A DNA stretch of 64,000 nt, from the IMG/VR virus record IMGVR_UViG_3300049846_001482, one strand, 5' to 3'. A program made the translations under genes and the position numbers. Below the pieces are notes generated by a model. That model saw only the letters and a list, made by a program, of their open reading frames with translations. It had not been told where the DNA came from and did not search any database. The DNA is from an uncultured virus (IMG/VR IMGVR_UViG_3300049846_001482). Taxonomy: Duplodnaviria; Heunggongvirae; Uroviricota; Caudoviricetes. Of the stretch, positions 13,390 to 47,703 are shown in pieces (the first letter of the stretch is position 1; each line of letters begins with the position of its first letter).

Positions 13390-13727
13390 ATAGATTTAGG
13401 TATCTCAAAGGTGACAAGGTAGAGAGTGTCATCAAGGAGTTCCCGATAGTCAACAATGTTATCGAGGTCTCTACTATGAATGATCTGGAGGAAGCCGCCA
13501 GATTCATCAGGTATAGATTTGGGAGCAATGAGATTTATCCTGCAGATGAGACGAGGGATATAAGCAATCTTCGTTATGGGTGGGTTTTTGATGGAGGAGA
13601 GCAAGTCATTCAGGTGACTGCCAAGATGCTTCTGTTGAATAAAGATATGAGTGAGGAAGATAGGAATAGATATTTCAGGAGCGAAAGAGGAAAGATGGCT
13701 TATGCAGCCCATCTTCTGACTTGTTAG
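13386..13727 (+). CDS. tag-B protein
   Basis: MNRFRYLKGD. Confidence 0.7.
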   Translation: MNRFRYLKGDKVESVIKEFPIVNNVIEVSTMNDLEEAARFIRYRFGSNEIYPADETRDISNLRYGWVFDGGEQVIQVTAKMLLLNKDMSEEDRNRYFRSERGKMAYAAHLLTC

Positions 13728-14101
13728 CGCTTCTTTATTACTTTTGGAATCTGAAACTTAGCCCAGTGTACCGAAGCATGAGTTGGGTCGTAGTTTTCTG
13801 GTAAAGGTATCTGGTTGACCAATCCTAGTTTCAAGCAATCTTGAACCAGACGACGTACCGTGGTATGAGGGTTTGTGCTTCCTATGCTGCACTGAATCTC
13901 CCAAGCATTAGGAACCCTCTTTATGTCGAAGCCTTTGAACGGGGCAAGATACTTCTCGTCGATATCAAATTCTACACCAGCCCTATATTTTGGATCAAGG
14001 GAAAAGATACCCTGTACCTGTGTGGGAGTTGAATAGATGTTCAACTGCCAAGGGGCTTTTTTAAATGCCGAAAGAAGATCTGCTTGTCTGTAAGATATCA
14101 T
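13724..14101 (-). CDS. tag-A protein
   Basis: MISYRQADLLSAF. Confidence 0.8.
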   Translation of the reverse strand: MISYRQADLLSAFKKAPWQLNIYSTPTQVQGIFSLDPKYRAGVEFDIDEKYLAPFKGFDIKRVPNAWEIQCSIGSTNPHTTVRRLVQDCLKLGLVNQIPLPENYDPTHASVHWAKFQIPKVIKKR

Positions 14102-14874
14102 GGTTTGGCCTCGAACTCTATCAGGCGAACAGAGCCGCCGTTCTCGTGGTATATCTCATCCTTCATAAGTTGGCAACCATTTATTGATTGACGAAGATAG
14201 TCCCTCAACTCATCTATGCTACTGGTGTCACCCATATTGGGAAACTGTATGTAGCTGCTTGTATTGTGAAGGGATGCCCAAGGTGACTGTGGGAAGTAGC
14301 TGTAGGCATAGCTGGGAATGATTTCCTCTATCCTACGTCTTATGATTGGGCTGTAAGTTTCCAAGAACCGATTGCTCTCAGAATAGAGTTTGACATGGTT
14401 GCTTCGCATATTGACGTGTTGAAAGAGGACGAGCCAGAACTTCACCCTTTCTTTATCGTTAAGGGTATTGAGTAGGTCGGCCTTCTTCTTGAAGGTTCGG
14501 CCGGTGAGGTGGTAGGAGAGACATTTTGAGTTGCTTCGCTTGTCAACGTTGATAGATTTCTGAACGCTCGATGCTTGTATCTGGCGGGACACCTGAGTAA
14601 CGATGTGGTTTATATCTATCTTGTCCTGATCATTGAAGCGGAAGTTGCTGCCGCTTGGAATAAGTCTGGTATTGAACTTTTGGTTGTCCAATTGAACGTC
14701 AAAATTATGAGCCAACTGCATGATAGGTGGCGTCAAGATATCTTGTATGAGATAGCGGGCATCTTCACAGAAAATAGTTAACTTTAGTTTGTCATGATAG
14801 ACATAGAAAGCCAGCCATATCTCAATGGGTGGGTTAAAGGTATTGAGTAGGTCGGCTTGTCTGAAAGATATCAT
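14098..14874 (-). CDS. tag-A protein, two units
   Basis: MISFRQADLLNTF plus internal KKKADLLNTLN. Confidence 0.8.
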   Translation of the reverse strand: MISFRQADLLNTFNPPIEIWLAFYVYHDKLKLTIFCEDARYLIQDILTPPIMQLAHNFDVQLDNQKFNTRLIPSGSNFRFNDQDKIDINHIVTQVSRQIQASSVQKSINVDKRSNSKCLSYHLTGRTFKKKADLLNTLNDKERVKFWLVLFQHVNMRSNHVKLYSESNRFLETYSPIIRRRIEEIIPSYAYSYFPQSPWASLHNTSSYIQFPNMGDTSSIDELRDYLRQSINGCQLMKDEIYHENGGSVRLIEFEAKP

Positions 14875-15269
14875 GGTCTCTCGCTCAAGAGCAGTCCTTG
14901 TTCATGCTCATCATTGACGTAGTAGTGAACTGGGTCGTAGGTCTTTAGGTCAGCGGGTCTAAAGTCAGATGAGGATATCAAGAAGTTGCCTTCGTCATCG
15001 ATGCCCCAAAAATATCCCACGAACTTATATTTTCTATCCCAGACCTGAGGGTGTTTCCTGAGGATAGAATCTGGGTTGTAGATAACAAAGCCTTCGGGTC
15101 TTTTGAATATATCACATCCGAATACTTCGTGCTTGCTATCATCGTAGTGAATCTCTCTAGTCTTTGGGTCGTAGATCTTCTTAGACATAGGTCTAGGATC
15201 GTAGACATAGAAAGCCGGTGAGGGCTCATTGAAGGTATTGAGAAGGTCCGCTTGTCTGTGGGAGATCAT
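14871..15269 (-). CDS. tag-A protein
   Basis: MISHRQADLLNTF. Confidence 0.8.
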   Translation of the reverse strand: MISHRQADLLNTFNEPSPAFYVYDPRPMSKKIYDPKTREIHYDDSKHEVFGCDIFKRPEGFVIYNPDSILRKHPQVWDRKYKFVGYFWGIDDEGNFLISSSDFRPADLKTYDPVHYYVNDEHEQGLLLSERP

Positions 15270-15508
15270 TTATTCACCAGCCTCACTTCGTCTTCTGACT
15301 CATAGAATATTTCGTATTTGTCTCGCATCCACTTGGAGCCTTTCGATTTAGGGTCTCCCTTGGATATAAAGTATTCAGGAGTTACCTCAACAATAGTTCC
15401 AGAGTGACCCATCCTCTCACCGGCCGAAGGGGCATAGTAAAGAGTTTTGCCGACGAGGCTATCGTCTTTTATCTTGTCAAGAAGGTCTGCTTGTCTGAAA
15501 GATATCAT
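15266..15508 (-). CDS. tag-A protein
   Basis: MISFRQADLLDKI. Confidence 0.8.
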   Translation of the reverse strand: MISFRQADLLDKIKDDSLVGKTLYYAPSAGERMGHSGTIVEVTPEYFISKGDPKSKGSKWMRDKYEIFYESEDEVRLVNK

Positions 15509-16230
15509 TTGAACCACACCGTCATGGTCATCCTATCGTTAGATATGTTGTGTCCTATTGAATCTCTAACCGAAACAACTCTTGGATCTCCAAAGTTCTT
15601 CAATCTCTGTGCAACGCTCATAACAACATCAGTAGGTCTGGAGAAGGTATTGTAGGACCAGATGCCATAGTCATCGTTGTAGAATCCCATGACACCAGTG
15701 CAGCTCTTGATAATATCTAGGAGGTCTTCTCCCTTTTGAGCAATGGCTGCAGAGATGGATATGGACCTATCTTCTGGTTTATATCCAATCATCTGAACCT
15801 TGTCGTCCTCAAAGCGAAAGAGGACATCAAATGGCATGGCAACGTCTTGGTTGAGGGTGTTGAGTAGATCTGCCTTCCTCAAGTTTTTCATCTGCCTGTG
15901 TTTGAACATCTCTTTCTGTTGTTCGGTCTTGAAGGGATAGACATAGATTCGGTTGGGGTTGTTTGCATCATCGCTCACAAACAATGCTCCTGGATACATG
16001 GCCCTTATATCTTTAGCAGCATAGACATCATAGCCCTTTCCGTTTCTGTAGACGATAACCTTTATGTCTGGGAAGCCGTCTGGGCCAGTGAACCAGTACC
16101 AATCGCCATTTAGGTTGACACCTTCCTCTGGTGTAGCCTTTGAGCCACGGATATAGGTGTGGGGCTGAGGAAGATAGTCCTCCTCATGGGTCAATGTATT
16201 CAAGAGATCTGCGTGTCTGTAAGATATCAT
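15505..16230 (-). CDS. tag-A protein, two units
   Basis: MISYRHADLLNTL plus internal LRKADLLNTLN. Confidence 0.8.
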   Translation of the reverse strand: MISYRHADLLNTLTHEEDYLPQPHTYIRGSKATPEEGVNLNGDWYWFTGPDGFPDIKVIVYRNGKGYDVYAAKDIRAMYPGALFVSDDANNPNRIYVYPFKTEQQKEMFKHRQMKNLRKADLLNTLNQDVAMPFDVLFRFEDDKVQMIGYKPEDRSISISAAIAQKGEDLLDIIKSCTGVMGFYNDDYGIWSYNTFSRPTDVVMSVAQRLKNFGDPRVVSVRDSIGHNISNDRMTMTVWFK

Positions 16231-16571
16231 GAGGGTGGGTAGACCGTTCTATTATAGTTGATCCATTTGTCATGGATATCTTTGGCAGACTTCAAGCTCG
16301 TCACGTTGTCTCCCTCTTGAGAAACCCAGTACATGAACATCTTACGCATTTCAGGTGGCACGATCTCATAGTTGTGGGTTATGTTTGCAGGCAAAGCAAG
16401 TCCACCTATTTCATTCATGGGTATTTCCGTCTCATGTCCGACCATCTCTCTGATCAAACGAACAAGAGCAACCTTGCTTTCTCTAAGACCCCTAAGGTAG
16501 TTCCATAGTGGTTCATAGACTTGATCCTCTCGAAAGCTGTTCATGAGGTCTGCTTGTCTGTAAGATATCAT
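16227..16571 (-). CDS. tag-A protein
   Basis: MISYRQADLMNSF. Confidence 0.8.
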   Translation of the reverse strand: MISYRQADLMNSFREDQVYEPLWNYLRGLRESKVALVRLIREMVGHETEIPMNEIGGLALPANITHNYEIVPPEMRKMFMYWVSQEGDNVTSLKSAKDIHDKWINYNRTVYPPS

Positions 16572-16975
16572 GAGTAGTAACACTCCACAACGAATGCTCT
16601 TCCTTTTTCGCCCACATAATTCGATGTATGTCCTTCCACTTTTTTAATGGCTTTAGACTTCAACAAGTCTGACATGACTCTGTTGACTAAACTAAAGGCT
16701 GTGGACTTGCTTTCGATTGAAGACAGACTTGCCGTTGCTCCTGCTGGGATATCTCTCTCAGGGGCAAATCCATGAGGGTTGGTTAGAATGGAATTAAATG
16801 ACCTCAACTCTGATGAACCAGACATCTGAGATACCACCATCTCCATGTCATCATTCAGGGATGGGTCATAGCAGATGGCCACATGATAACCAGCAGGATC
16901 GGTGAAGAAGACGAAGAATATTGATCCGCCGCCTTTCAATGTATCCAGTAGGTCTGCTTGTCTGTAAGATATCAT
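16568..16975 (-). CDS. tag-A protein
   Basis: MISYRQADLLDTL. Confidence 0.8.
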   Translation of the reverse strand: MISYRQADLLDTLKGGGSIFFVFFTDPAGYHVAICYDPSLNDDMEMVVSQMSGSSELRSFNSILTNPHGFAPERDIPAGATASLSSIESKSTAFSLVNRVMSDLLKSKAIKKVEGHTSNYVGEKGRAFVVECYYS

Positions 16976-17367
16976 CTGAGCATGAGTCCTGGTTTTGCTG
17001 CGACCAACTGATATTTCTCTAGAGGGAAGGTTTTCTTTTGGGTGACAGCAATACCCATATCGATAGAGATGAGTTGTCCCATATGTTCTGATCCTATGAT
17101 GACTTCTTCACCGATGAGATTGGGGACTTTGGGATTCCAAAATATAGCTTTGCCGTCTCTCACGCCAAGTAGTTTGCCAACCTCTTCGTCGAAGTCCTCG
17201 TTCTCATATTGGAGTGATACAAAATCCTTGCCTCCAACCGTAAAGTATCTTGTGATGAGTGGAAGGGATTGGTTTCTGCCATAGGAAGGCACCAACACAA
17301 ATAGTTTACCGACAGGATTTTGGTCCTTGACTGTTTGAAGAAGGTCGGCTTGTCTGTACGAAATCAT
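16972..17367 (-). CDS. tag-A protein
   Basis: MISYRQADLLQTV. Confidence 0.8.
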   Translation of the reverse strand: MISYRQADLLQTVKDQNPVGKLFVLVPSYGRNQSLPLITRYFTVGGKDFVSLQYENEDFDEEVGKLLGVRDGKAIFWNPKVPNLIGEEVIIGSEHMGQLISIDMGIAVTQKKTFPLEKYQLVAAKPGLMLR

Positions 17368-17630
17368 AGTCGCCTCAAGAGAGCATCGAGAGTGTCATCT
17401 TCATCTCTGATGTTCAAATACTTCTTACGCTCTTCTTCTGTAGACTTCTCCCACATACCTTCCAAGATGATCTCCTCAACCCTTCTAGGAATATCCATTG
17501 CCGAGCCATGAGGATCTGACAACTCAATGGTATTCTGAGCCATAGGAATGAATCGCTCAAGGTATGCTTTGAAGGTAGCATCCTCGAAGGCTGGCAAAAG
17601 GTCGGCTTGTCTGTAGGAAAGTAGGCTCAT
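17364..17630 (-). CDS. tag-A protein, first gene of the array
   Basis: MSLLSYRQADLLPAF. Confidence 0.8.
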   Translation of the reverse strand: MSLLSYRQADLLPAFEDATFKAYLERFIPMAQNTIELSDPHGSAMDIPRRVEEIILEGMWEKSTEEERKKYLNIRDEDDTLDALLRRL

Positions 17631-17634: not shown

Positions 17635-17653
17635 TATTACTAAAATATAAAAG
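17635..17653 (-). promoter_or_regulatory. putative phage (late) promoter motif
   Basis: CTTTTATA-TTTTA-GTAATA 4 nt before the ATG. Confidence 0.7.
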
Positions 17654-18227: not shown

Positions 18228-18557
18228 GTGAGGTTAAAGGCAGAGGAAAAGTTCAATCTTGCGGTTGTGACCTTGATCATATTGGGCGCTGTAGGTCTGT
18301 GGTACTCATCACAAAGAGCATATGAGACGCAGTGGAGTAGTTGGCCAAAATACTATCTGCAATGGGAGCCAAGTGGAAGGCAGGCTCAGGTTATCCCAGC
18401 CTATCAGCGTGAAGGCTGCATTGTCATTGGTGACATCAGAACCTCTCTTGGCGATGGACTCCTGACAGTTTCAACCTACGAGAAGGGGAGAGTCTTTAAG
18501 TGTGAGACAAAAGATTCTCCCTGCTTTGAAGTAGCCCTTTGTGAAAGAGTCAAGTGA
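18228..18557 (+). CDS. membrane-anchored hypothetical protein
   Basis: AGGAGG RBS before GTG; N-terminal TM helix. Confidence 0.6.
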   Translation: MRLKAEEKFNLAVVTLIILGAVGLWYSSQRAYETQWSSWPKYYLQWEPSGRQAQVIPAYQREGCIVIGDIRTSLGDGLLTVSTYEKGRVFKCETKDSPCFEVALCERVK

Positions 18558-18754
18558 ATAGAAACAACTTCCTACTCGGCGTCAAACCATCCAGATGTCG
18601 GGCTGGGCAGGTATGGTACAACCCATCTGTCTTTGCCGACCCCCGAAGGATTACGCTTGCACAGAAAGACGACGACCTGATGTGGAAGCTGAGTGATGGA
18701 ACCTACATAGCCGAAGATCTGATACTGCAGTATTTTGTCTTGGAGCAACCATGA
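18554..18754 (+). CDS. tag-B protein
   Basis: MNRNNFLLGV. Confidence 0.65.
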   Translation: MNRNNFLLGVKPSRCRAGQVWYNPSVFADPRRITLAQKDDDLMWKLSDGTYIAEDLILQYFVLEQP

Positions 18755-19026
18755 GAAAGAACATATTGATAGCTCTCTTGTGTGTGGCTACTTTAGCCTT
18801 TGGGGCAACCAAGTACATACCAGACCCTAACGAGACCAGGGTTGAGAATGTCCACTATGATCCTGAGTTGAAGATGGTCGTCATCCACATTCATGCTCAT
18901 GTCCTCTGGTTTAATATTGAAGAGGTCTATGGGTTGAAGGTCAAGGATGACAAAGACATCAAGAATGTCTGGGAGCGCATCATTGGAGATCAGCCAGAGG
19001 TTGTTCATCTAAAGATGGTGAAGTAA
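18751..19026 (+). CDS. secreted hypothetical protein
   Basis: Sec-like signal MRKNILIALLCVATLAFG. Confidence 0.6.
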   Translation: MRKNILIALLCVATLAFGATKYIPDPNETRVENVHYDPELKMVVIHIHAHVLWFNIEEVYGLKVKDDKDIKNVWERIIGDQPEVVHLKMVK

Positions 19027-19322
19027 TGAGCAGCCGACTAAAGCATCTACTTGGTGTTAAGGCTAGGAAGATGCCCAAGTGGGAGTCTTGGCAGGGACAG
19101 ATGTCCATTTACTCAAGGGGCATCAAGGTCTCTGTCTTTAAAGAGGAGAGTTCCTACTACCCCAATGGACCCTGGGTTGTTTCTGGAGCCGTACTCGACA
19201 TAAAGCGTGAGGGAGGCAGTCGAGGCTTCAATCACTGCAAGACTTACCTTGGTAGGTTTGCGTCACTTGAAGAAGCCAAACGAGAAGTAGAAGAGTGGCT
19301 TGAAGAGTTGGAGACGATGTAG
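19026..19322 (+). CDS. hypothetical protein (tag-B variant)
   Basis: MSSRLKHLLGV; SLEEAK..VEEWL C-terminus. Confidence 0.6.
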   Translation: MSSRLKHLLGVKARKMPKWESWQGQMSIYSRGIKVSVFKEESSYYPNGPWVVSGAVLDIKREGGSRGFNHCKTYLGRFASLEEAKREVEEWLEELETM

Positions 19323-20002
19323 TGGACTTCGTAGTTGTCAACTCACTATTTCAAGAGACAGACATCGCCCTCTTTGGGTTGGATGACCCTGTTCGTCTGC
19401 CTGAGACTGCCACCATGTTTGATGTCTTGGTTGCTGCCAAGATATTCAAGTCCAAGAGTGATGCCCGTAAGAACTGGAAGGGTTCAGTAGATATTCCTTT
19501 TGGCTTAAATCGATTTGAAGTCGGCAAGATGAAAGTGGAGATCTACACCCTCAAGATAGGTGAGGGTCAGGTTGAAGTAGTTGATCATGGCAAGGTGGGT
19601 GGACCAACTGAAACACCAAAGCCCCCTAAACCCAAAGAGATAGTCTATCGTCAACCCAAGAACGACAAAGAATACTTCATTGGGGTTGCTGGAAGCATTT
19701 TCTCTACAACGTGGCCAAATAGAGCCAACTTTGAGAGGGTCTTCAAGTCAGAGATGGAGAAATACCATCTCAAGAAAGACAGACTTGAGGTGGTTAAGTA
19801 TGTCGGATGGGAGTTTAGAGGGTGGGACTGGATAAAATGGGGAATAAAGAACGTCTCTAGAAATGGATTGAAAAGTTGGAGGTGTCTACTGCCTTTTGAG
19901 TGGACCAACAAATACGAGATATACATTCACTATACCGATCTTGGACAAGGCAACATTCACCTATGGGTTGATCATTCAGAACTACAGAGGTTGATGCAAT
20001 GA
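19322..20002 (+). CDS. hypothetical protein with possible S4-like N-terminal domain
   Basis: DVLVAAKIFKSKSDARK resembles S4 RNA-binding helices. Confidence 0.5.
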   Translation: MDFVVVNSLFQETDIALFGLDDPVRLPETATMFDVLVAAKIFKSKSDARKNWKGSVDIPFGLNRFEVGKMKVEIYTLKIGEGQVEVVDHGKVGGPTETPKPPKPKEIVYRQPKNDKEYFIGVAGSIFSTTWPNRANFERVFKSEMEKYHLKKDRLEVVKYVGWEFRGWDWIKWGIKNVSRNGLKSWRCLLPFEWTNKYEIYIHYTDLGQGNIHLWVDHSELQRLMQ

Positions 20003-20436
20003 AGATGTATAGATTGGTCTATGAGTACATGTATGGGGCTCAGTTTGCCGCTACGATAGGATTCTTTGACGACAGAGACAAAGCCATCGAGGCATGGAAC
20101 AAGTGCTTTAACCGAGAGGGTTTGGATAAGAAGGCGGATCCAAACGACCCATACTCCGCCCTATACCCGGCGTTCCACTCAGGCTCGGTAGATGACTCCA
20201 AGCTTGAGTATACCTTTAGCTGCTGCGGCTGGAGGGAGTGGTATAGGGTTGAGGAGTTCGAGCATGACAACACCCTGAAGGGCTATGGTGGTGGACCTTC
20301 ACGCCTCAACACTGTGGACTACAAGATCAAGGATGCTCTCAAGGCTCTGGTTGATGCCGAAGGTAGTCTGAGAAGGTTTTCCTTGAACTACTCTGAGAAG
20401 TCACCAGACTACACCAAGGTATTCAAGAGTGAATAG
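19999..20436 (+). CDS. hypothetical protein
   Basis: Coupled ORF. Confidence 0.6.
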   Translation: MKMYRLVYEYMYGAQFAATIGFFDDRDKAIEAWNKCFNREGLDKKADPNDPYSALYPAFHSGSVDDSKLEYTFSCCGWREWYRVEEFEHDNTLKGYGGGPSRLNTVDYKIKDALKALVDAEGSLRRFSLNYSEKSPDYTKVFKSE

Positions 20437-20662
20437 GCAAGACTACCTCAAGGGCAAGAAGATAGAGAGGGTCTATCCAGTAGACCCTAAAAGGTACAGT
20501 GTGGGTGATACGGTTGTTTCTGTTGATGGAAAGATAGTGGGCATCGTAACAGAAGTAAGTCATGACATTGTATTCCTAGACATAGACAGCATCAGGGGAG
20601 ACATTATTCCCCAAGGCGCTATGCCAGCCTATCGCAGAAGTGACTTCATAAGACATGAATAA
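20429..20662 (+). CDS. tag-B protein
   Basis: MNRQDYLKGK. Confidence 0.7.
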   Translation: MNRQDYLKGKKIERVYPVDPKRYSVGDTVVSVDGKIVGIVTEVSHDIVFLDIDSIRGDIIPQGAMPAYRRSDFIRHE

Positions 20663-21050
20663 ACACAAGTTCATCAGCGGAGCCAAACGAGATCCTCTTA
20701 TCTGGCCCAGAAGCAGAGGGGAGAGGTGGATTCAAAAGGCCGATGAGTCTCACAAGGTTGTCATTGATGCAATTGATGATGTCCGTTCTGTCTATCAAGT
20801 AAGAAGCAACAAGTTCGGGAATAGCATCATCAATCAGGGCGATTTCATTCTTCACTACAAGCCAGCACCTTTGGTCCAGGTTGGTGACAAGTTCCGCAAG
20901 AAGATCAAATACATACTGGAGAAAGAGACTCCACAGAACGTAGAGGTCATAGGGAATGATGGTATGACTTGGACGCTCAAGGAAGAGGGCGACAAATTCA
21001 CCTACCATCTGGCCGAAGAGCTTTTGCTTCAATACTATGAGAAGATATAA
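20655..21050 (+). CDS. tag-B protein
   Basis: MNKHKFISGA. Confidence 0.7.
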   Translation: MNKHKFISGAKRDPLIWPRSRGERWIQKADESHKVVIDAIDDVRSVYQVRSNKFGNSIINQGDFILHYKPAPLVQVGDKFRKKIKYILEKETPQNVEVIGNDGMTWTLKEEGDKFTYHLAEELLLQYYEKI

Positions 21051-21282
21051 GTTCATCAGTAATGTGGCGATACCTAGAGCGGAGTATTATCCGCTCAAGG
21101 TGGGTGAGCATGTCAAGTACTCACACCTCTACCTTGATGAAGTCAATAGACAACCACAGCATCTAGGTGAGGTGGGATATGTTAAATCTGTTAATCCTGA
21201 AATGGTTTTTGTGGTCTGGCCCCAAGGTCCACGCAATACCTCTAATCTGCAACACAAGTACTTGGACAGGATCATCCCATGA
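21037..21282 (+). CDS. tag-B protein
   Basis: MRRYKFISNV. Confidence 0.7.
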   Translation: MRRYKFISNVAIPRAEYYPLKVGEHVKYSHLYLDEVNRQPQHLGEVGYVKSVNPEMVFVVWPQGPRNTSNLQHKYLDRIIP

Positions 21283-21599
21283 AGAGATTGGTCTTCCTCA
21301 CCAGCAACCCTCCAGCCATCTATAAAAGGGGTGATAGGGTCTGTCTTACAAGAGAAGACTGGCATGACATTCACCTCAGGCAATTTGAAGACACTCCGAA
21401 GGTTAGGGATGTTGGCATCATCAGATGGTGCAATAAAGATGGCTGCATGATAGATTGGGGAGATGGGAGTAACCTCAACAGTGAACACTTTTGGCCACAC
21501 AAAGAAATAGAGTTGGCTGGTCCAGATGATCGCATAAAGAGCAGCAAGCCAAAAAAGGAAGAGATTGCGGCTGCGGAGTTTCCCTATGAAGAGGGATAA
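21279..21599 (+). CDS. tag-B protein
   Basis: MKRLVFLTSN. Confidence 0.7.
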   Translation: MKRLVFLTSNPPAIYKRGDRVCLTREDWHDIHLRQFEDTPKVRDVGIIRWCNKDGCMIDWGDGSNLNSEHFWPHKEIELAGPDDRIKSSKPKKEEIAAAEFPYEEG

Positions 21600-21804
21600 G
21601 TTTGTCCGTGGTGAGAGGGTGTCCATTCCAAAGTACCGACCTGGGACAAAGGTCTTGACGCAAGATGTCCTCTACAACGACCACTATGCCACCATTGTAG
21701 GTTTTGCCGATGGACTCTACGAGATCAAGATGTCTGGAGATCAAAGGTACTACATCACCGAAGAAGAATTAGACGAGTTCAACGATGAGGGTTTGTATGA
21801 ATAG
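21586..21804 (+). CDS. tag-B protein
   Basis: MKRDKFVRGE. Confidence 0.7.
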   Translation: MKRDKFVRGERVSIPKYRPGTKVLTQDVLYNDHYATIVGFADGLYEIKMSGDQRYYITEEELDEFNDEGLYE

Positions 21805-22189
21805 ACAGAAGTTTCTTAGTGGCTACGTCAGAGAAAAACTCAAGCCCTGCTATAACTGTCTTAGCTATCATTACCACACCTCTTGTCGCATTACTTATGT
21901 TGGCGCATTGCCACGCAAGGGCGAGAGTTGGAAGTCTGATAAAGGTAAAATTGTAGAGATAGTTGGATGGAAAACTGCTCAAGAAGAATTCATAACGGAC
22001 GAAGAGCCAGATTCAATGAGGCGGCTGTGGGACTGGTCGAATGATCAAATGACACCCAAGATAATCTACAAAGACATACATGCTCATCACTGTGAAGATC
22101 TCATAGACTTCATGAATGCATACTCGCCAGTCTTAGACATGGAATACCTCATACAAAGGGCGCAGAGATTTCAGGCGCAAACAAAATGA
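21797..22189 (+). CDS. tag-B protein
   Basis: MNRQKFLSGY. Confidence 0.7.
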   Translation: MNRQKFLSGYVREKLKPCYNCLSYHYHTSCRITYVGALPRKGESWKSDKGKIVEIVGWKTAQEEFITDEEPDSMRRLWDWSNDQMTPKIIYKDIHAHHCEDLIDFMNAYSPVLDMEYLIQRAQRFQAQTK

Positions 22190-23250: not shown

Positions 23251-23276
23251 CAGCCTCCTGTAAAATCCCTTAAAAT
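23247..23276 (+). promoter_or_regulatory. sigma70-like promoter
   Basis: TTGACA-18-TAAAAT. Confidence 0.65.
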
Positions 23277-24728: not shown

Positions 24729-24730
24729 CC

Positions 24731-38705: not shown

Positions 38706-39049
38706 GGGTGGTATTCAAAGTCAAAGGCGGTTCCATCTTCATTCAATCTTACCTCACGAAGATTCTTTACCTTTGAGTTTCCTTGTAGTATTTTTGCCAA
38801 CGTCAGTTCTATCTCGTATGGAGTTCTTTTTGTTGACATCCAGCCAACTGCAACCTTTTCCATATAGTTGTCGGCGTCCATGACAGAATCTATCTTGTCT
38901 TGAAGTGGCTTGATCTTGTCAGAGGCAGCGCTTTTAAGCGGCTCAATATCGTAGAAGTAGATGCCGCTCTTGGTGTTGTATATCTTGACCCTGCAATGAA
39001 TGACAGGGTTGAGGGTCTGTAGAAGATCTGACTGGCGAAAGCTGATCAT
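38702..39049 (-). CDS. tag-A protein
   Basis: MISFRQSDLLQTL. Confidence 0.8.
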   Translation of the reverse strand: MISFRQSDLLQTLNPVIHCRVKIYNTKSGIYFYDIEPLKSAASDKIKPLQDKIDSVMDADNYMEKVAVGWMSTKRTPYEIELTLAKILQGNSKVKNLREVRLNEDGTAFDFEYHP

Positions 39050-39420
39050 CTCTTAACCACCCATACTGTAACTTCTTGAACATCATCAGAGTATTCAACT
39101 GGATACTCTTTTTTGAAATCGAAACCCTTAGACCAAACAAAATTGGCTAACTGGGTGTGTTCTTCGGACCAGGACCATCCACTTTCCTCATTTGGATCAC
39201 GATGCTTTGAAACGTTAATGGATGGAACATTTTGGAATGTCTTGACGAGGTTCTGTTGGGTGGAGAATTCAGGTATCTTTATGCCAGCGTTGTAGTATTC
39301 ATAGGTGACGAAATTATTCCCCTGATCTTTAACTCCCCTGGGGTTAAATACCAAACCGACCACTGGATGAGCGGCTTTGTCTAAGGATTGGATTAGATCG
39401 GCTTGGCGGAAGGATATCAT
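39046..39420 (-). CDS. tag-A protein, first gene of the array
   Basis: MISFRQADLIQSL. Confidence 0.8.
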   Translation of the reverse strand: MISFRQADLIQSLDKAAHPVVGLVFNPRGVKDQGNNFVTYEYYNAGIKIPEFSTQQNLVKTFQNVPSINVSKHRDPNEESGWSWSEEHTQLANFVWSKGFDFKKEYPVEYSDDVQEVTVWVVKR

Positions 39421-39425
39421 ATACT

Positions 39426-39444
39426 TACTACTAATTTATAAGAT
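39426..39444 (-). promoter_or_regulatory. putative phage (late) promoter motif
   Basis: ATCTTATA-AATTA-GTAGTA 5 nt before the ATG. Confidence 0.7.
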
Positions 39445-39782
39445 CAGCGAAAATGCCCAAACTGCTTCTGGTATTTGTTTATATGATTAGTTCTACAGAA
39501 TGGGCATTTTTTGGTTCTAGAGTATTGGCGGCTTGGGAGATCACATTTGGGGCAACAGTTTGGCTGATATATCTCCATGAACTCGCCATTTCCATTGCAC
39601 TTCTGGCAAGTAACAATCCTATACTCATTATTGCCCCAGCGAGGATAGGCAGGAGTTACCCCACCTACCATATACAGCATCTCACGCCGCCCAAAGAATC
39701 CACGGGCAGACTCACAATCACATATGATCCACCGCTTGCGGGTCTTGATTAAGGATGGGTTTAGGAACTTGTGGCGGTTCAT
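39444..39782 (-). CDS. tag-B Cys-rich zinc-finger protein
   Basis: MNRHKFLNPS; several CxxC pairs. Confidence 0.65.
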   Translation of the reverse strand: MNRHKFLNPSLIKTRKRWIICDCESARGFFGRREMLYMVGGVTPAYPRWGNNEYRIVTCQKCNGNGEFMEIYQPNCCPKCDLPSRQYSRTKKCPFCRTNHINKYQKQFGHFR

Positions 39783-39790
39783 GGGATACC

Positions 39791-39826
39791 TAAAGAAACA
39801 GCCCCCTGGTGGTGTCCAGGGGGCTG
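39791..39826 (-). terminator. GC-rich hairpin/terminator
   Basis: CAGCCCCCTGG/CCAGGGGGCTG stem followed by TTTCTTT on the minus strand. Confidence 0.7.
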
Positions 39827-39937
39827 CTAGGGGCGACGGTTCAGTGGGCCGTCACCCTCCACCACCCTGTAGTTACTGTTACAGGGACCAGTCGTGGCCG
39901 CAAGGTAGTTCTATTGTATCAAACTTCATGGCTTTGT

Positions 39938-40189
39938 CTATTTCTTTTTCTTCATTGCAACCATCTTCTTTTTCATGGCACGGATCCTCTCAAAGTTCTT
40001 CTTCATGGCATCGCTGGGTTTGAATACTACCAAGTTGACCTCTTTGCCATCAGAGATTTTAGCCTGGTAGATGCCAGTGAAGCTTTTCAGGGTTTCGTCC
40101 AAGATGGCTTGCTTGGCCATCTTGAATAGACCCTCATCTTCCTTTGGGATATCCCAGTCTATCTCTAGCCTAAGTTTCTGACGAATCAT
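39938..40189 (-). CDS. hypothetical protein
   Basis: MIRQKLRLEIDW; Lys-rich tail. Confidence 0.55.
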   Translation of the reverse strand: MIRQKLRLEIDWDIPKEDEGLFKMAKQAILDETLKSFTGIYQAKISDGKEVNLVVFKPSDAMKKNFERIRAMKKKMVAMKKKK

Positions 40190-40310: not shown

Positions 40311-40532
40311 TCACAGCAAATGCTCCTCGATGATGGCATAGAGGTCTTTCCATACTATTCCAACGTCCTGCAGGTCAAACTTCTCATTCCTTACCTTGAG
40401 CTGAGCCTCTTTGAACGGGATGTCCACCAGTAGAATGCGTGGCTCGGCACAGAAGAAGGTGCAGACAAGAGTTCGCTTCTTCTTGTCGTACTTGATGCCG
40501 TAGATGACGCACTCTCTTGGCTTTAGGCTCAT
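40311..40532 (-). CDS. hypothetical protein
   Basis: ATGA-coupled to the AAA gene. Confidence 0.6.
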   Translation of the reverse strand: MSLKPRECVIYGIKYDKKKRTLVCTFFCAEPRILLVDIPFKEAQLKVRNEKFDLQDVGIVWKDLYAIIEEHLL

Positions 40533-41440
40533 GGCTTGGTTGAGAATCCTATCTTATCGCCCCTTGAACGGGTGACACGGGGCGGCTTCTTCATGGAGTC
40601 GAGCTTCTTGAGGGCTTCGGCATAGTCCTTGCCGTACATGAACACCGAGACCACCAACTCCTTGAGGTGAGCCACAGAGAGGTGGGAGGTATCCTTGACC
40701 CACTTGTTGATGTCCACACCCTCAGGCTTCTTCTCCATCTTGTTGATGAGGTGGCTGAGGTAGAAGTGTCTATCCTCGGTGGCAGGAAGGTCAACCTGCA
40801 CCACCCTGTCAAAGCGGCTGGGGCGGTCAGTGATTCTCTCAGCCAACTTCTCTGGATAGTTGGTCGTGGCAATGAAAACCACGTTGTCGAGCTGGAAGAC
40901 GCCATCGAGCAAGTTCAGGATGGCTGACTCATGGTTGTCGCCTTCCATGTTGAAGAGGGCGTCAATGTCCTCAAGGATGACCAGGAACTCACGGTTGGGT
41001 TCTGCCTTGCGGAAGAACTGGATGCAAGGGATGTCGTAGCGGGCATTCTTGAAGTCGATGACCATGCCACCACGGTCGATCATGTCCTTGATCAAGATGT
41101 TGATGATGGAGGTCTTGCCGCTGCCCTGCGGTCCATAGAGCAGGATGCCACGCTTGAAGGTGATGCCCATCTGGCGGTACTCTTCTCTCTTACCCCAGAA
41201 GGACTTGACCTCGGAGATGATCTCGCTCTGCTGGGCGCTGGGGAAGTTCAGAACCTCGTACTTGCCGCCATCGACCATCGAGAAGATGTGGTGTCCGTGG
41301 TAGTCAATGTTGCAGCGATAGACACCTGGCTCAAGTCTGTCTGCATTGCATTCAACGCCAGTGAACTTCCTGCGGTCTTGTGTGGAGTATTTGGCTACCG
41401 ACATCTTTGATTCAGCAGGCTTCGTCTCGATGATCTTCAT
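40529..41440 (-). CDS. AAA+ ATPase (classic clade, BCS1-like)
   Basis: KRGILLYGPQGSGKT, ILEDID, LNLLDG, ATTN, RPSRFD. Confidence 0.9.
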   Translation of the reverse strand: MKIIETKPAESKMSVAKYSTQDRRKFTGVECNADRLEPGVYRCNIDYHGHHIFSMVDGGKYEVLNFPSAQQSEIISEVKSFWGKREEYRQMGITFKRGILLYGPQGSGKTSIINILIKDMIDRGGMVIDFKNARYDIPCIQFFRKAEPNREFLVILEDIDALFNMEGDNHESAILNLLDGVFQLDNVVFIATTNYPEKLAERITDRPSRFDRVVQVDLPATEDRHFYLSHLINKMEKKPEGVDINKWVKDTSHLSVAHLKELVVSVFMYGKDYAEALKKLDSMKKPPRVTRSRGDKIGFSTKP

Positions 41441-42597: not shown

Positions 42598-42768
42598 TTA
42601 CTCTTTGATGGAATTCTTCCAGATGGTCATGACCAGAGAGCCTAGCATGAAGATGACACCCTTTGATGCGTTGAAGTCATCAAAGGCATAGACGATGCCA
42701 GCCACAAAGCAGGCAGCACTGCCAAACCCGAAAATGGCTTTCACATCGCTTTTGCTCAGATTTACCAT
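42598..42768 (-). CDS. small membrane protein
   Basis: Two hydrophobic helices; TAATG overlap. Confidence 0.55.
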   Translation of the reverse strand: MVNLSKSDVKAIFGFGSAACFVAGIVYAFDDFNASKGVIFMLGSLVMTIWKNSIKE

Positions 42769-43079
42769 TATCGCTCCAGAAGGATAGCTTTGACCAAGAT
42801 GTTCTTGAATGCAGCAATGACGAGCTCGCAACGAGCCTTGGTGCCACCAAAACACACCACTCGACCCTCTGTGTGGATGCGGCGGGTGTAGGTCTCGGCG
42901 GTCTTGCGGTCGTACATGCAGACCTTCGTGAAGACCTTGATGACATCCTCAAAGGTCGAGATGTCATTGTTGAAGGCTTCGACTGCCCAATTGGACATGT
43001 CGCTACGGTCCTCCAAGGTCACGTTAGCGATCTTGGGGTTGCCGATAGTCTCCGAAGGCTTCACAATGGTCTTACTCAT
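42768..43079 (-). CDS. clpS: ATP-dependent Clp protease adaptor ClpS-like
   Basis: WAVEAFNNDISTFEDVI...AETYTRRIHTEGRVVC matches the ClpS core. Confidence 0.75.
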   Translation of the reverse strand: MSKTIVKPSETIGNPKIANVTLEDRSDMSNWAVEAFNNDISTFEDVIKVFTKVCMYDRKTAETYTRRIHTEGRVVCFGGTKARCELVIAAFKNILVKAILLER

Positions 43080-43287
43080 GGACCTCTTCCTCGTGAATGG
43101 TGAACTCTTCATGCTCACCATAAATCCTGCTAGATTCCTTGTCAAGTCTCTTCTTTTCCTTTTTGGCTTTCTTCTCGTCTAGCCAAACGCTATGAATCTC
43201 GGCGTTAAAGCGCATGTCACCCGTAGCGCCTTCGCCAATGATCTCTTGCCGCCAAGAAGCGGTTCGAAGAATGACATAGACCTTCAT
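43072..43287 (-). CDS. hypothetical protein
   Basis: MKVYVIL; directly after a promoter. Confidence 0.6.
   Translation of the reverse strand: MKVYVILRTASWRQEIIGEGATGDMRFNAEIHSVWLDEKKAKKEKKRLDKESSRIYGEHEEFTIHEEEVHE
43117..43145 (-). promoter_or_regulatory. sigma70-like promoter for clpS
   Basis: TTGACA-17-TATGGT. Confidence 0.55.
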
Positions 43288-43641: not shown

Positions 43642-44037
43642 TTACTTTTTGGTCATTAAAACTACGTCCTCTAAGTTCATTTCGACCATCTTGACTTTCT
43701 CTGGATAGATATCTACGCCATTCTCTGTATGAACAATTCCGCTGGAGATTGAGGTAATGGGACCACAGTTCTTTCCATCTAATATCACATTCAAACCCTC
43801 AGAGCTCTCCTTGTGCCTGACAAACAACTTGCCATCTCTAATCCAAGTTCTGTAGCTGTCGAGGTTGATGACGCCATTGTGCCACCCCTGCACTGTGATC
43901 TTTCTTCCATCCTGTTTAACGATCTTGTTGACGCCAGCCTCTCGTGGGAATATGGAAACAACCTCCATGCCAACTAGATTGGATGGAACAGCTTTTTCAA
44001 GGCTTGTAAGAAGGTCAGCGATTCTAAAAGATATCAT
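43642..44037 (-). CDS. tag-A protein
   Basis: MISFRIADLLTSL. Confidence 0.75.
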   Translation of the reverse strand: MISFRIADLLTSLEKAVPSNLVGMEVVSIFPREAGVNKIVKQDGRKITVQGWHNGVINLDSYRTWIRDGKLFVRHKESSEGLNVILDGKNCGPITSISSGIVHTENGVDIYPEKVKMVEMNLEDVVLMTKK

Positions 44038-44531: not shown

Positions 44532-45464
44532 TTATTTTGCGTCGTGCGGAAGATAGAGTTTTTTCCACCAAGAGTAAATTGATATGGCTATGGGAAGAAC
44601 TGCTGTTCCTATGAGCGCCCAGTGATTATCAAATACTCCTATACCTATAGATGCAATAAATAACATTGCAAATGTAATGGAAAGAGACTTCATGTTCTTT
44701 ATTGTATTTACAATAGCTCGCCAAGTTTTCCAGTACCACTTGGAGTATTTGGGGTCTGGCTTGGAAGACTCCTCATCAATCACAGCCCAAACCTCAGATT
44801 GCATACCCCAGTCACTATAGGGGAAAATTGTGTAACCCTTATCGCCCCACTCTTCGCCCCATGAGTTCCTGATGATGAATCCCTCTTTGTTCCATCCAAC
44901 CACTGTCATAGCATGTCCACCAGTAACAACTTGACCAACCACACTTGGTTTCCACATAGTCTTATTTGCGGAGTAGACTGGGACCGTGATGGCACAAGCC
45001 CCGCCACGATAGACGGCCGCCTTGAGAGTCTGAATTGTGTTGACGTAGGCATAGCCCTGTATCTTGTAGTTGGAAGCTTTGTTAAGGACATCTTGCGAAA
45101 TCTGCTCTGGCTTCTCTATTTTGCCGTATGGATAGTCCTCTTCTGCAACAATGCCTTTCTTATAGAGAATGTTCATAGAGTCTCTAGGATACATGCCTTC
45201 GCCTTCTTGATTGATCCTGTTGTTGTATACAAACTGTGGCGAGAAGTAGTCCTCAAAGCCCACGTTCTTCTTCTCCTGCAGTTCTTTCATGGCAGCGCAG
45301 GATTCAGCCACACATGAACCTTGTGACCCCTGATTCCTGACGGGCAACAAGTTTTTGCGTGGATCAAAGACCTCTGGAAGACTTAGGTCAGAGGGGAATA
45401 TGGACTCTGCCTGAAAGTCTCTGGGGTCGGCTGGAGAAGATTGGGCGTCTAATTTGTATATCAT
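44532..45464 (-). CDS. papain-like cysteine peptidase (C1A) with C-terminal TM helices
   Basis: RNQGSQGSC, GGHAM, IIRNSWGEEWGDKGY. Confidence 0.9.
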   Translation of the reverse strand: MIYKLDAQSSPADPRDFQAESIFPSDLSLPEVFDPRKNLLPVRNQGSQGSCVAESCAAMKELQEKKNVGFEDYFSPQFVYNNRINQEGEGMYPRDSMNILYKKGIVAEEDYPYGKIEKPEQISQDVLNKASNYKIQGYAYVNTIQTLKAAVYRGGACAITVPVYSANKTMWKPSVVGQVVTGGHAMTVVGWNKEGFIIRNSWGEEWGDKGYTIFPYSDWGMQSEVWAVIDEESSKPDPKYSKWYWKTWRAIVNTIKNMKSLSITFAMLFIASIGIGVFDNHWALIGTAVLPIAISIYSWWKKLYLPHDAK

Positions 45465-46675
45465 GGCAGCACACTAAGGTCTATTTTTGCAAAAGTTTTT
45501 ACTAGGGTTGACCCAATCTGAGATGTGGTTGTAAAAACAGTATAGAGCCAATCCCCATCAACTTGAAAATAATACGGGTATCCCGATGGAGTTTGTGCAA
45601 CAGCAATCACCTTAAAGTCGCTTTTCCTGACGAAAAACAAAGCATAGGCATTATCATATATTAAATACTCTTTGTATGTTACCACACGGTTTATGTTTGG
45701 ATATCCATTAGACACAGGTGCCTGAGCTGCAGAAAAGTGAAAATATGCATTGACATCGATGGAGTTTGCAAGATCATTTATGTCACCGTAAACAGCTATA
45801 CCTGCTCTGGATGGTGGTACGGGAGAAACCTGATCAAGACCAATGTATGGTCCATAAAAAATCACCGAGCTTCCACTACCACGTGCGCCTTGTATGTTGC
45901 TGCTAGTGAGAGTTTGAACCAAGGAACCATCTGTGATGCTAAAAACTCTCGTAGCATTGCTATTGTAAGCAACAAAAACATCGTTAAATATATTGGACCT
46001 TAAGTAAGAGGTATCTGGCTTAAAGACTCCCCCATCAGATCCGGTCGTTTTATCATATGATTTAATTGCACTTGAATTGCCATCAAAAGAACCACCAACA
46101 AGAACGTCAGATGTGCCTGTTTCAACGGTAGAAAATTGAGAAACACCAAATCCTCCAGCAGCATAGACTGGAGCAAATGTTTCATTCAAAGAACCATCGG
46201 CAATATTGACAGCAGCCAATCCAGAGGCGCAGTAAGTTAATCCACTGTAATCAAAAGCGCCAGCAATAAAAATGGAGTTGTTATCACGTAAGCCAATGGA
46301 ATTAACAACTGTACTTCCCCAAGCCATTGGCGTCAGCGATGGATTAAAAGATGTCACTACTGAGTAGTCGCTCAGGTCTATAGCGGCAAGACCGGTCCTA
46401 GCAACCCCATTGACAGCAGTAAAATTACCGCCCAGGTAGGCTATGTTGTTGTGAACAAGCACAGTTTGGGGCTGACCACCAGTGATAGATGACAAAATAT
46501 TGATACCAGTCAGGTTTATGGGAACTTCCATGAAATTGTATGAACTAGATGTCCCAAGTGTATTTTGAATAGCAACAACTGATGACTGCAGAGAGTTTAC
46601 ATCTGCTGCCATTACGTCATCAACGTTGTCAACTTTAGTTGTGAATGAGTCTGTGCCTGTTGGATAGACCGACAT
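45461..46675 (-). CDS. beta-propeller virion fibre/adhesin-like protein
   Basis: YLGGNFTAVNG..RTGLAAID repeats; N-terminus shared with 6155..7639. Confidence 0.75.
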   Translation of the reverse strand: MSVYPTGTDSFTTKVDNVDDVMAADVNSLQSSVVAIQNTLGTSSSYNFMEVPINLTGINILSSITGGQPQTVLVHNNIAYLGGNFTAVNGVARTGLAAIDLSDYSVVTSFNPSLTPMAWGSTVVNSIGLRDNNSIFIAGAFDYSGLTYCASGLAAVNIADGSLNETFAPVYAAGGFGVSQFSTVETGTSDVLVGGSFDGNSSAIKSYDKTTGSDGGVFKPDTSYLRSNIFNDVFVAYNSNATRVFSITDGSLVQTLTSSNIQGARGSGSSVIFYGPYIGLDQVSPVPPSRAGIAVYGDINDLANSIDVNAYFHFSAAQAPVSNGYPNINRVVTYKEYLIYDNAYALFFVRKSDFKVIAVAQTPSGYPYYFQVDGDWLYTVFTTTSQIGSTLVKTFAKIDLSVLP

Positions 46676-46687
46676 TTATATCTCCTG

Positions 46688-46906
46688 TTACTTTAATATG
46701 TTGTCAATAAAATTGTCAGCGCTGATATAACTTGGACTCGATAGATTGGTTCCTATGCCGAACCCTTGTGTGCCTACAACGAGGTTTCCATCAAATGCAG
46801 TAACACCAATGGGTGTGTTCAATGCAGTTGACTCAGAGGCGCTACCGCTTGAGGATGAGACGCCATATTGGGCTTGGCCATATTTGAATGATCCGTACTT
46901 AGCCAT
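46688..46906 (-). CDS. small probable structural protein
   Basis: MAKYGSFKYGQAQYG tyrosine-glycine repeats. Confidence 0.55.
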   Translation of the reverse strand: MAKYGSFKYGQAQYGVSSSSGSASESTALNTPIGVTAFDGNLVVGTQGFGIGTNLSSPSYISADNFIDNILK

Positions 46907-46908
46907 GA

Positions 46909-47703
46909 TTAGTTGAATCCTTTGGATAGTTTCACTGTGTAAGTGTAATGCTTTTCATCTGGAGGAATGTAGTCTTGCTCTTCTTTGACAGATTCAACAA
47001 AGTCAAGAGACTCAACGCCCTTGATGATCTCCCTCATGTTGAATGTGGCGTCACCTTCGTCCCCAAAGACAATTGACTTATAGATGTTGCCGACATTGGA
47101 GTGATCATCGTGACTCAAAAGTACTGTTGACAATCTAGACTGAAACCAATCTGAGGTCTCGTTTGGCTTTCCATCTGCTCCACTGCATCCATAAAAGATG
47201 TTGAGCCATCCGTTGCGGCTACGGGTAGGTCTTATTGTTACTTCAAATTTTACGGTGTTGGATGTTAAGTTAAGCGTATTGAAGAGGTCAGCTCTTTTAA
47301 GGCTTGCCTCTCTTACATGGGGAACCTTCATCTTTATGACGGCATCAACCCCACCTATACCCTTCTTTGATGGATAGTCAACTGTTGTTTCTACACCCAT
47401 CTCTTTGGAGTAGTAGACAACTTCTTTGATGATGTCTTCGACAGTGACCTTGATGTGAAGACATGTCTTGTATCTATTGCCCATCAACGGGTCTGTTCCA
47501 GCCAAACTCAAACCAGACCTAAGGAGTATTTTGCCCATCTCTTTAGAGTATTCGGAATAGAAGGGCGTCCTGAAATCTCTGTCAATGGCAGAGGGTCCAT
47601 CCACAATCAAACACCCTTCTTGATCATGAAAAAACCTCATGATGTAGGCATCATTGTGGGTCTTGATGGTTTCAAGCAGGTCGGCTTGACGAAAAGAGAT
47701 CAA
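46909..47703 (-). CDS. tag-A protein, two units
   Basis: TTG start with AGGAG; MISFRQADLLETI plus internal LKRADLFNTLN. Confidence 0.8.
   Translation of the reverse strand: MISFRQADLLETIKTHNDAYIMRFFHDQEGCLIVDGPSAIDRDFRTPFYSEYSKEMGKILLRSGLSLAGTDPLMGNRYKTCLHIKVTVEDIIKEVVYYSKEMGVETTVDYPSKKGIGGVDAVIKMKVPHVREASLKRADLFNTLNLTSNTVKFEVTIRPTRSRNGWLNIFYGCSGADGKPNETSDWFQSRLSTVLLSHDDHSNVGNIYKSIVFGDEGDATFNMREIIKGVESLDFVESVKEEQDYIPPDEKHYTYTVKLSKGFN

Follow-up and report, generated by a model that had tools for sequence, protein, structure and literature searches.

A two-part N-terminal tag on 30 small proteins of an uncultured tailed phage and its possible role in virion assembly

We analysed 64,000 bases (hereafter the window; 46.4% G+C, no N) of the IMG/VR record IMGVR_UViG_3300049846_001482, an uncultured virus of the Caudoviricetes. 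Thirty small minus-strand genes of this window open with the same short peptide, which we call tag A, followed by bodies with little detectable resemblance to one another. The peptide is selected as a peptide, behaves as a module, is spread through a phage clade and occurs among late or structural genes. We read tag A as a portable docking tag that may well serve virion assembly; a partner in virion morphogenesis is our best guess, held tentatively, and loading into the head, one part of that guess, is by itself possible but doubtful. A first-pass annotation of this DNA had gone further and proposed a library of capsid-packaged, injected proteins carrying a new address label.

A conserved peptide in front of divergent bodies

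A strict search for the leader M-I-S-[YFH]-R-Q-[AS]-D-L-L finds it at 20 open reading frame (ORF) starts in the window. With a looser score (at least six of nine tag positions) there are 31 sites, 30 of which are minus-strand ORF starts; the remaining site (20696) is a chance match that lies inside no gene and starts no ORF. The back-translated tag DNA pattern, with at most one mismatch, is matched 26 times, against none in 100 dinucleotide shuffles. Most of the 30 genes start with ATG (27), two with GTG and one with TTG, and in gene 17364-17630 two additional residues precede the tag.

To describe the peptide we pooled 83 tag A proteins, 30 from the window and the rest from relatives. The information content exceeds 3 bits at every position from 1 to 10. 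All 83 proteins have S3 and D8, 82 have R5, and position 4 is Tyr or Phe in 74 proteins and His, Thr or Ser in nine. Positions 11-14 are weaker (D/E, T/S, a hydrophobic residue in 94%, K/N), Pro and charged residues are frequent at positions 15-16, and beyond residue 16 the columns drop to background, with hydrophobic residues enriched at positions 22-24, after this linker. Most of the 83 proteins fall in a narrow length peak of about 115-150 aa. Tag A proteins are acidic (median pI 5.65; pI below 6 in 21 of the 30 from the window).

Codon usage separates the peptide from its DNA. Across the pool, third codon positions of the tag have an entropy of 0.9-2.0 bits, against zero or near zero for first and second positions at most sites; the exceptions are sites that switch between the TCN and AGY families of Ser, between the AGR and CGN families of Arg, or between Tyr and Phe. 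Ser3 has a TCN codon in 65 proteins and an AGY codon in 18, and Arg5 an AGR codon in 40 and a CGN codon in 42. Because third positions are nearly free and Ser and Arg change codon family, the RNA or DNA sequence is not conserved as such, and the claim of the first-pass annotation that synonymous variation reveals selection on the peptide is borne out.

Judged by its sequence, tag A is best described as a 14-residue peptide of two halves, residues 1-6 (M-I-S-[YF]-R-[QRK]) and residues 7-14 (A-D-L-L-[DE]-x-hydrophobic-[KN]). The M-I-S-x-R-Q half is found at N-termini only. The second half, in the form [KR]-x-A-D-L-[LI]-x-x-[LF]-[KN], also has internal copies at each module boundary in proteins of more than about 200 residues, from which the M-I-S-[YF] part is mostly absent; three-module tag A proteins are present among the relatives. 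In the window only the proteins starting at 14874, 16230, 38436 and 47703 contain such an internal core, all on the minus strand: KKADLLNTLNDK (14452-14487) in the 258-aa protein 14098-14874, RKADLLNTLNQD (15844-15879) in the 241-aa protein 15505-16230, KKADLIPAFKSR (38023-38058) in the 211-aa protein 37801-38436, where an SH3-like second module comes after it, and KRADLFNTLNLT (47263-47298) in the 264-aa protein 46909-47703. A type VII secretion motif, judged by eye, was dropped as an interpretation of tag A, as position 4 is not always Tyr.

Once the first 16 residues are removed, the best body-to-body BLASTP match among the 30 window proteins has an E-value of 0.002, and no resemblance of these bodies to other window proteins was found. 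No Pfam family scores above cutoff for the 30 proteins or for 62 scanned relatives, and a PHROG search of seven tag A proteins gave no match. Iterative clustering with hidden Markov models (HMMs) divides 153 tag-stripped modules into about 70 clusters, the largest of 14 members, and a few bodies group as small paralogue sets. When the 16 clusters with at least three members were compared by hhalign (120 pairs), only two pairs, both with common members, exceeded 90% probability; the other 118 stayed at or below 25.5%, although small alignments limit the sensitivity of this comparison and most bodies may still be deeply homologous.

Two bodies from the window were modelled with AlphaFold2. The model of 27464-27823 (7-sequence alignment; pLDDT 70, pTM 0.60) has a predicted alpha/beta body with the elements H4-12, E16-25, E28-36, H43-59, H80-92, E97-101 and E111-118, and that of 28619-29032 (6-sequence alignment) a mostly beta body at low confidence (pLDDT 55). 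Both models show the tag as a helix at residues 4-12 or 4-13, with a confidence below that of the core. The better model matched no known fold: Foldseek against PDB and BFVD returned nothing at E ≤0.001, and VIA wide gave a best Z of 4.5, which is no fold match. A search of the ESM Atlas gave top scores of 0.85-0.86, with no family and no model. Nevertheless, related contigs contain orthologues of individual bodies (body identity 18-78%), so the window genes are maintained and not debris. Moreover, an HMM of the SH3-like body type in 37801-38436 matches protein 12011-12310 (E 1.5e-4 among 62), which bears a different N-terminal tag (tag B, described below); as one body type stands behind both tags, label and body are separable.

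These results refine the earlier view of the bodies. That similarity ends at about residue 13 agrees with the best body BLASTP match, but conservation runs to residue 14 and is followed by a Pro-rich linker, some bodies form small paralogue groups, and four long proteins hold a second, internal tag core. That the bodies are unrelated is favoured by the 118 low hhalign pairs and by two models of different secondary-structure class, one of them at pLDDT 55 only, whereas the internal repeats and the narrow length range point toward one family.

Gene arrays, promoter-like motif and head genes of relatives

The 30 genes lie where the first-pass annotation had placed them, in four arrays of nine, five, nine and five genes plus two single genes, all on the minus strand and each with the tag at its ORF start. 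Array 1 (13724-17630) comprises 13724-14101, 14098-14874, 14871-15269, 15266-15508, 15505-16230, 16227-16571, 16568-16975, 16972-17367 and 17364-17630. Array 2 (27093-29032), the source of both modelled proteins, comprises 27093-27467, 27464-27823, 27820-28275, 28272-28622 and 28619-29032. Array 3 (29798-33395), directly downstream of a GH64 gene, comprises 29798-30235, 30232-30591, 30588-31052, 31049-31495, 31492-31887, 31884-32315, 32312-32752, 32749-33147 and 33144-33395, and array 4 (37403-39420) comprises 37403-37804, 37801-38436, 38433-38705, 38702-39049 and 39046-39420. The single gene 46909-47703 is the two-module gene with a TTG start and opens an operon that includes a beta-propeller fibre-like gene; the other, 43642-44037, carries the variant MISFRIADLL and is last in the same operon. 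The chaining of array genes by ATGA overlaps also holds, as the start overlaps the stop of an upstream ORF (at least 50 codons) by NTGA in 25 of the 30 genes, and eight of the nine in array 1 are linked by ATGA.

A promoter-like motif, TTATAWWWWWNTA, has eight copies in the window, all on the minus strand. Each of the five tag A transcription units (starts 17630, 29032, 34756, 39420 and 47703) has one of them 7-39 nt in front of its first gene. These copies are TTATATTTTAGTA (17638-17650), 7 nt upstream of array 1; TTATAATTTAGTA (29041-29053), 8 nt upstream of array 2; TTATAATTTACTA (34796-34808), 39 nt upstream of the GH64 gene, which opens the unit continued by array 3; TTATAAATTAGTA (39429-39441), 8 nt upstream of array 4; and TTATAAAAAAGTA (47734-47746), 30 nt upstream of the operon starting at 47703. 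Another copy (7676-7688) precedes the NHL-repeat, tail-fibre-like gene 6155-7639, and the remaining two lie elsewhere. A 20-nt version of the motif has three matches against none in shuffles, a control that covers this version only and not the short pattern. The motif looks akin to the AT-rich, -10-only promoters used for late genes in T4-type phages.

The genes that share these units were expected to encode virion proteins. In favour of this, one promoter-like motif is common to the tag A units and a fibre-like gene, and the minus-strand beta-propeller fibre-like gene 45461-46675 (phrog_5490, E 2e-11) lies between the two single tag A genes in their operon; phrog_5490 is also matched by gene 57915-59177 of a related contig, within its capsid-to-sheath block. 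A virion role for the GH64 beta-1,3-glucanase (33395-34756, minus strand; Pfam PF16483, E 4.9e-44) is only putative. The enzyme may serve to depolymerise a glucan-type envelope or capsule of the host, and so hints at what the host is. The operon starting at 47703 further encodes a papain-family (C1) peptidase (44532-45464, minus strand; PF00112, E 8.9e-23; phrog_16701 peptidase).

Four DNA sequencing runs, and no RNA run, are listed as containing this DNA. Contigs from two of the DNA runs carry a second variant of 29028-30772 at about 11x depth, against about 120x, with roughly 15-19% nucleotide difference within the tag A genes, indicating that diverged strains co-occur. Read joints between tag positions are no evidence of cassette exchange: their sides span only 22-30 nt, and they are repeat artefacts.

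Tag A recurs in distant relatives while the bodies change. A pattern scan of IMG/VR yielded one contig of 205,426 bp, here G001, in which the tag A profile has six matches at E ≤0.0011. A metagenome scan gave 20 loci, 14 with genuine tag-headed ORFs, mostly in arrays; six (L016, L020-L023, L031) were dropped as chance matches or as not lying at real ORF starts. A search of 1.84 billion proteins with a profile built on the first 32 residues gave 63 cluster representatives at E ≤0.001, and in all but one of them the best matched stretch starts within the first 12 residues. By contrast, the tag pattern had no match in a prokaryote genome collection of 185,579 species, and the profile found no tag A in Bacillus phage G or in Virus Rctr197k, LR745208.1 and Tunturiibacter phage Tunturi_5, three genomes reached through the G001 capsid protein. 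Other searches were negative as well: megablast of 29000-40000 against 50,697 phage records gave no match, a related-locus search of IMG/VR with one body (28619-29032) gave no relative, and a homologue search with two tag A proteins returned only the query, its word index not reaching short tags. A literature search with the tag letters found nothing, no wider search having been made for this clade.

The head genes of the window phage, whose contig is 195,487 bp long, fall outside the window, and head-gene comparisons come from the relatives. In this region the window and G001 share at E ≤1e-4 only an AAA ATPase and tag-driven matches. The first 53 residues of 43642-44037 are 43% identical to the G001 tag A gene 61902-62309. 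The G001 major capsid protein (62588-63574) is 56.5% identical to gp27 of Bacillus phage G, and its protease matches phrog_18299, with no Pfam family and no match in a sequence search of solved structures. Three G001 tag A genes (54835-55386, 56602-56991, 61902-62309) lie between this capsid gene and the sheath gene (49038-50849), interleaved with Ig-like/CarboxypepD_reg-like and beta-propeller proteins, and a second cluster lies at 166.8-169.3 kb. A second contig, the 12-kb fragment G002, has a head block collinear with that of G001 (portal 92% identical) and carries, after the portal region, an inserted 89-aa tag A gene that G001 lacks there.

The first half of the tag also occurs by itself. 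The pattern [IML]-S-x-R-Q falls within the first 25 residues of eight G001 proteins, against 0.25 expected from its frequency elsewhere in them, and the four that lack A-D-L-L all lie in the 45-87 kb morphogenesis region. One of these is a conserved zinc-ribbon protein of about 130 residues encoded right after the portal gene in both contigs (G001 70495-70884, 129 aa; G002 3631-4029), which starts with M/V-I-I-S-A-R-Q, the first tag A half, and has no A-D-L-L helix. Further half-tag proteins of this region are 45872-47173, 86300-86602 and 86599-87045. Mimicry of a scaffold tail by the tag was rejected, as the 687-aa scaffold-like protein of G001 is not among the 25 best matches of a tag-core HMM.

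A small gene recurs next to tag A genes. In the window, the 72-aa gene 46688-46906 (minus strand) adjoins tag A gene 46909-47703 and ends in FIDNILK; in G001, a 59-aa gene with the same ending (62306-62485) lies directly after the capsid gene, between it and a tag A gene. A predicted complex of the G001 capsid protein, this 59-aa protein and a tag A protein scored 0.00 in a run without controls, from which we draw no verdict.

Tag B and the proteolysis genes

About 60 genes on both strands open with another N-terminal tag, tag B (M-[NKRDQ]-R-x-x-[FY]-[ILVAT]-x-[GN]), after which K-K-P often comes next. The search pattern M-[NKRDQ]-R-x-x-[FY]-[ILVAT] is matched 62 times, probably twice spuriously, where 20 shuffles gave 0-2 matches. 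Tag B genes occupy 7738-13727 and 18554-27101 (plus strand) and include many minus-strand genes from 29070 to 62864. Most of their products are basic (median pI 8.9), with a length of about 90 aa, and many have SH3-like or zinc-ribbon bodies; the RNase H gene 53889-54491 carries this tag. Strict sigma-70-like promoters precede two tag B units, and other units look similar by eye. As the two tags follow promoter class, packaging cannot be assumed for both. G001 has four tag B genes, and none was found in phage G, Virus Rctr197k, LR745208.1 or Tunturi_5. A twin-arginine signal, judged by eye, was dropped as an explanation of tag B: the spacing differs and no hydrophobic region follows.

Three further minus-strand genes may form a phage-borne proteolysis set. 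They encode a ClpS-like adaptor (42768-43145; Pfam E 1.5e-10), a full-length ClpP (60453-61040; E 2.9e-81) and a Cdc48/VAT-like single-domain AAA ATPase of the classic clade (40529-41440), 35% identical to G001 98348-99442. A sequence search of solved structures with the ClpS-like protein gave no match.

Possible docking to the virion and competing explanations

The invariant polar residues of tag A, its selection at the peptide level, its separability from the body and its conservation across distant relatives together suggest recognition by one conserved partner. S3, R5 and D8 hardly vary, whereas the sequence beyond residue 16 diverges throughout, which argues for recognition over mere folding. 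Promoter class and the neighbourhood of head and fibre genes make a component of virion morphogenesis the best guess for this partner. In such a mechanism, residues 1-6 would work only at a free N-terminus, and residues 7-14 would form a short amphipathic helix that a Pro-rich or charged linker joins to the following domain. The tag would tether a fast-changing set of small, late-expressed proteins to the conserved partner, which, going by gene context, would belong to the virion. Most likely, the proteins would then be taken up by the forming head or attached to the virion and would stay with the particle, as described for phage T4, so that cargo would be delivered to the next host. Short cargo-loading peptides are also known from encapsulins, where they bind the inner face of an HK97-fold shell protein and are usually C-terminal.

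The T4 internal proteins IPI-III carry a capsid targeting sequence (CTS), MKTYQEFIAE (PMC8442874, PMC3012670). As these sources describe it, the CTS resembles tag A in being about 10 residues long, at the extreme N-terminus and common to otherwise diverse small proteins that vary between related phages; its portability onto foreign proteins and the expression of its genes with head genes are counted as further likeness. Between the two sequences there is the same length and a faint pattern over positions 1-6 (Met, x, Ser/Thr, Tyr, polar, polar) with no statistics behind it. The T4 tag, however, is described as ending at a prohead-protease cut site (after Glu) and as being removed, whereas tag A has no conserved cut-site residue. 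According to PMC8442874 the internal proteins of T4 are highly basic, whereas those with tag A are acidic. T4-type head genes (gp21-type protease, gp23-type capsid) were not matched, the relatives' head genes being of phage-G type. Tag A further differs in its second half, copies of which lie within proteins, and in its 30 copies in 64 kb. Tag A may therefore work like the T4 system but, failing several of its defining features, is no member of it.

Two other systems are comparable by description. The first 30 residues of DarB of phage P1 suffice as an N-terminal packaging signal (PMC9024508), and, as in the capsid-cargo reading of tag A, a peptide at the N-terminus brings its protein into the capsid, to be delivered along with the DNA, DarB being anti-restriction cargo. 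According to the same source, the P1 case involves one signal on one very large protein and a stepwise Dar assembly pathway; it was compared with tag A by description and not by sequence. The heads of giant phages such as SPN3US hold tens of different packaged and ejected gene products (PMC10052503, PMC7411985). These are, as reported there, processed by a prohead protease, with no single shared N-terminal tag described, and the phages are not related to this clade.

By these analogies the capsid-cargo idea is plausible, but several observations weigh against it. The residue after the ten-residue leader (position 11) is D/E in 52 of the 83 proteins and in 11 of the 30 from the window, and no invariant residue follows; as position 11 is not conserved, the tag does not end in a cut site of T4 type. 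In being acidic, tag A proteins differ from the internal proteins of T4, which are basic; fused multi-module proteins retain the A-D-L-L half internally, as a removable propeptide would not need to; and 30 cargo genes in 64 kb far exceed the three T4 internal proteins named in one source (PMC8442874). The promoter-like motif was not found in G001, and the only ground for calling it late is its association with fibre-like genes. Tag B, on about 60 genes that include RNase H, indicates that tagging may serve a purpose broader than packaging. Of the injected library proposed in the first-pass annotation, what stands is a selected peptide on bodies without detectable common ancestry, linked to late or virion genes; the missing cut site, the acidic proteins, the internal A-D-L-L copies and the second tag speak against a T4-like packaging route. 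An anti-defence role of the bodies, which match no Pfam family above cutoff, stays putative.

Docking could instead be to a hub outside the virion, such as the phage Cdc48-like AAA unfoldase or ClpP/ClpS, the variable domains then being interchangeable adaptors and not cargo. Tethering motifs operate in protease adaptors, and the layout of short conserved helix, flexible linker and variable domain would fit them, as the repeated cores of multi-module proteins would fit multivalent docking. ClpS, ClpP and the AAA ATPase are all encoded in the window, and the last is among the very few window proteins with a G001 homologue, as expected of a conserved partner. We consider such a hub unlikely, since no link between the tag and AAA, ClpP or ClpS was found, and the context of tag A is fibre and head genes, the ClpP/ClpS neighbourhood lying among tag B genes. 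Similarly improbable is a motif without address function, the first helix of one explosively diverging, tandem-duplicating domain family of which the multi-module proteins would be tandem repeats. The A-D-L-L-x-x-L copies at every boundary of two- and three-module proteins, the narrow length peak, the hydrophobic enrichment at positions 22-24 and the beta-strand-like hydrophobic pattern with which many bodies close (by eye) would all suit such a family. Yet profile-profile comparison, within the sensitivity of its small alignments, does not unite the clusters, the two models differ in secondary-structure class, and the SH3-like body type is common to tag B. Nor would a structural helix hold S3, R5 and D8 invariant while the fold core diverges, or place the N-terminal half, without A-D-L-L, on other proteins of the G001 morphogenesis region.

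Quite unlikely, too, is that the tag anchors small interchangeable binding domains on the outside of the virion (fibre, baseplate or a capsid decoration site) as a mixed adhesin coat. Such an anchor would fit the co-transcription of tag A genes with beta-propeller/NHL fibre-like genes and the glucanase and the interleaving with Ig-like and beta-propeller proteins in G001, and an acidic pI is no obstacle outside the capsid; but no body belongs to a recognisable adhesin or Ig-like family in Pfam, 14 residues are short for stable external attachment, and 30 alternative ligands for one site would dilute each other. The frequent Tyr or Phe at position 4, together with ClpS and ClpP in the window and the papain-family peptidase in a tag A operon, raises the idea of a timed pro-degron, in which loss of the first three residues would expose this residue to the ClpS N-degron pathway. 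In bacteria, substrates of that pathway need a free N-terminal Leu, Phe, Tyr or Trp, whereas the encoded N-terminus is Met-Ile(-Ser), with no primary destabilising residue, and the exposing step is hypothetical. The idea is highly improbable, given also the nine proteins with His, Thr or Ser at position 4, the invariant A-D-L-L half and internal copies that it leaves unexplained, and the lack of an obvious reason to destroy 30 late proteins. Just as improbable is a nucleic-acid signal, either for re-initiation at the ATGA junctions or for recombination and cassette shuffling. The frequent NTGA overlaps, the nearly leaderless first genes of arrays, which start 7-9 nt after the promoter-like motif, and the tag DNA of roughly 30 nt, whose repeated copies suffice to break assemblies at tag positions, would agree with it. 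The nearly free third codon positions and the switches between unrelated Ser and Arg codon families largely refute it, and internal copies keep the peptide without a start codon; recombination at tags may occur as a side effect.

A broader version of the virion-docking reading, which we think rather unlikely, is that the phages of this clade sort their accessory proteome by a code of two labels. Tag B would mark about 60 mostly basic proteins behind host-type promoters (two units scanned strictly), and tag A 30 proteins, mostly acidic, whose units have a promoter-like motif of their own that is specific to the phage. The bipartite tag A would combine an M-I-S-x-R-Q part shared with conserved morphogenesis proteins and a repeatable A-D-L-L docking helix, and would load by far the largest known hypervariable effector library into the virion, without clipping by a T4-type protease, for delivery to the next host.

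If tag A is a virion-loading label, the 30 window proteins and more than 100 tag A proteins across relatives become candidate co-injected proteins of a phage group with no cultured member. They would form a catalogue in which to seek new counter-defence or host-takeover functions, and the tag itself would be a short portable peptide for putting foreign proteins into large capsids. Should the tag dock elsewhere, tags A and B on well over half of the genes in 64 kb would still imply a proteome-sorting principle undescribed for phages. In either case the bipartite design, with an N-terminus-only part and a repeatable helix, offers direct experimental handles.

Other genes of the window are also of interest. 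The two minus-strand fibre-like proteins, 6155-7639 (NHL repeat) and 45461-46675 (beta-propeller), have nearly identical first 30 residues, and a 137-nt DNA repeat (7515-7651 and 46551-46687, 77% identical) covers the 5' ends of both genes, which suggests, at the sequence level, a common attachment domain with different distal parts. The minus strand also encodes membrane or redox accessory proteins unusual for a phage, namely a PspC-domain protein (49262-49456), a MerC-like protein (49458-49826) and a DCC1-like thiol-disulfide oxidoreductase (53554-53898).

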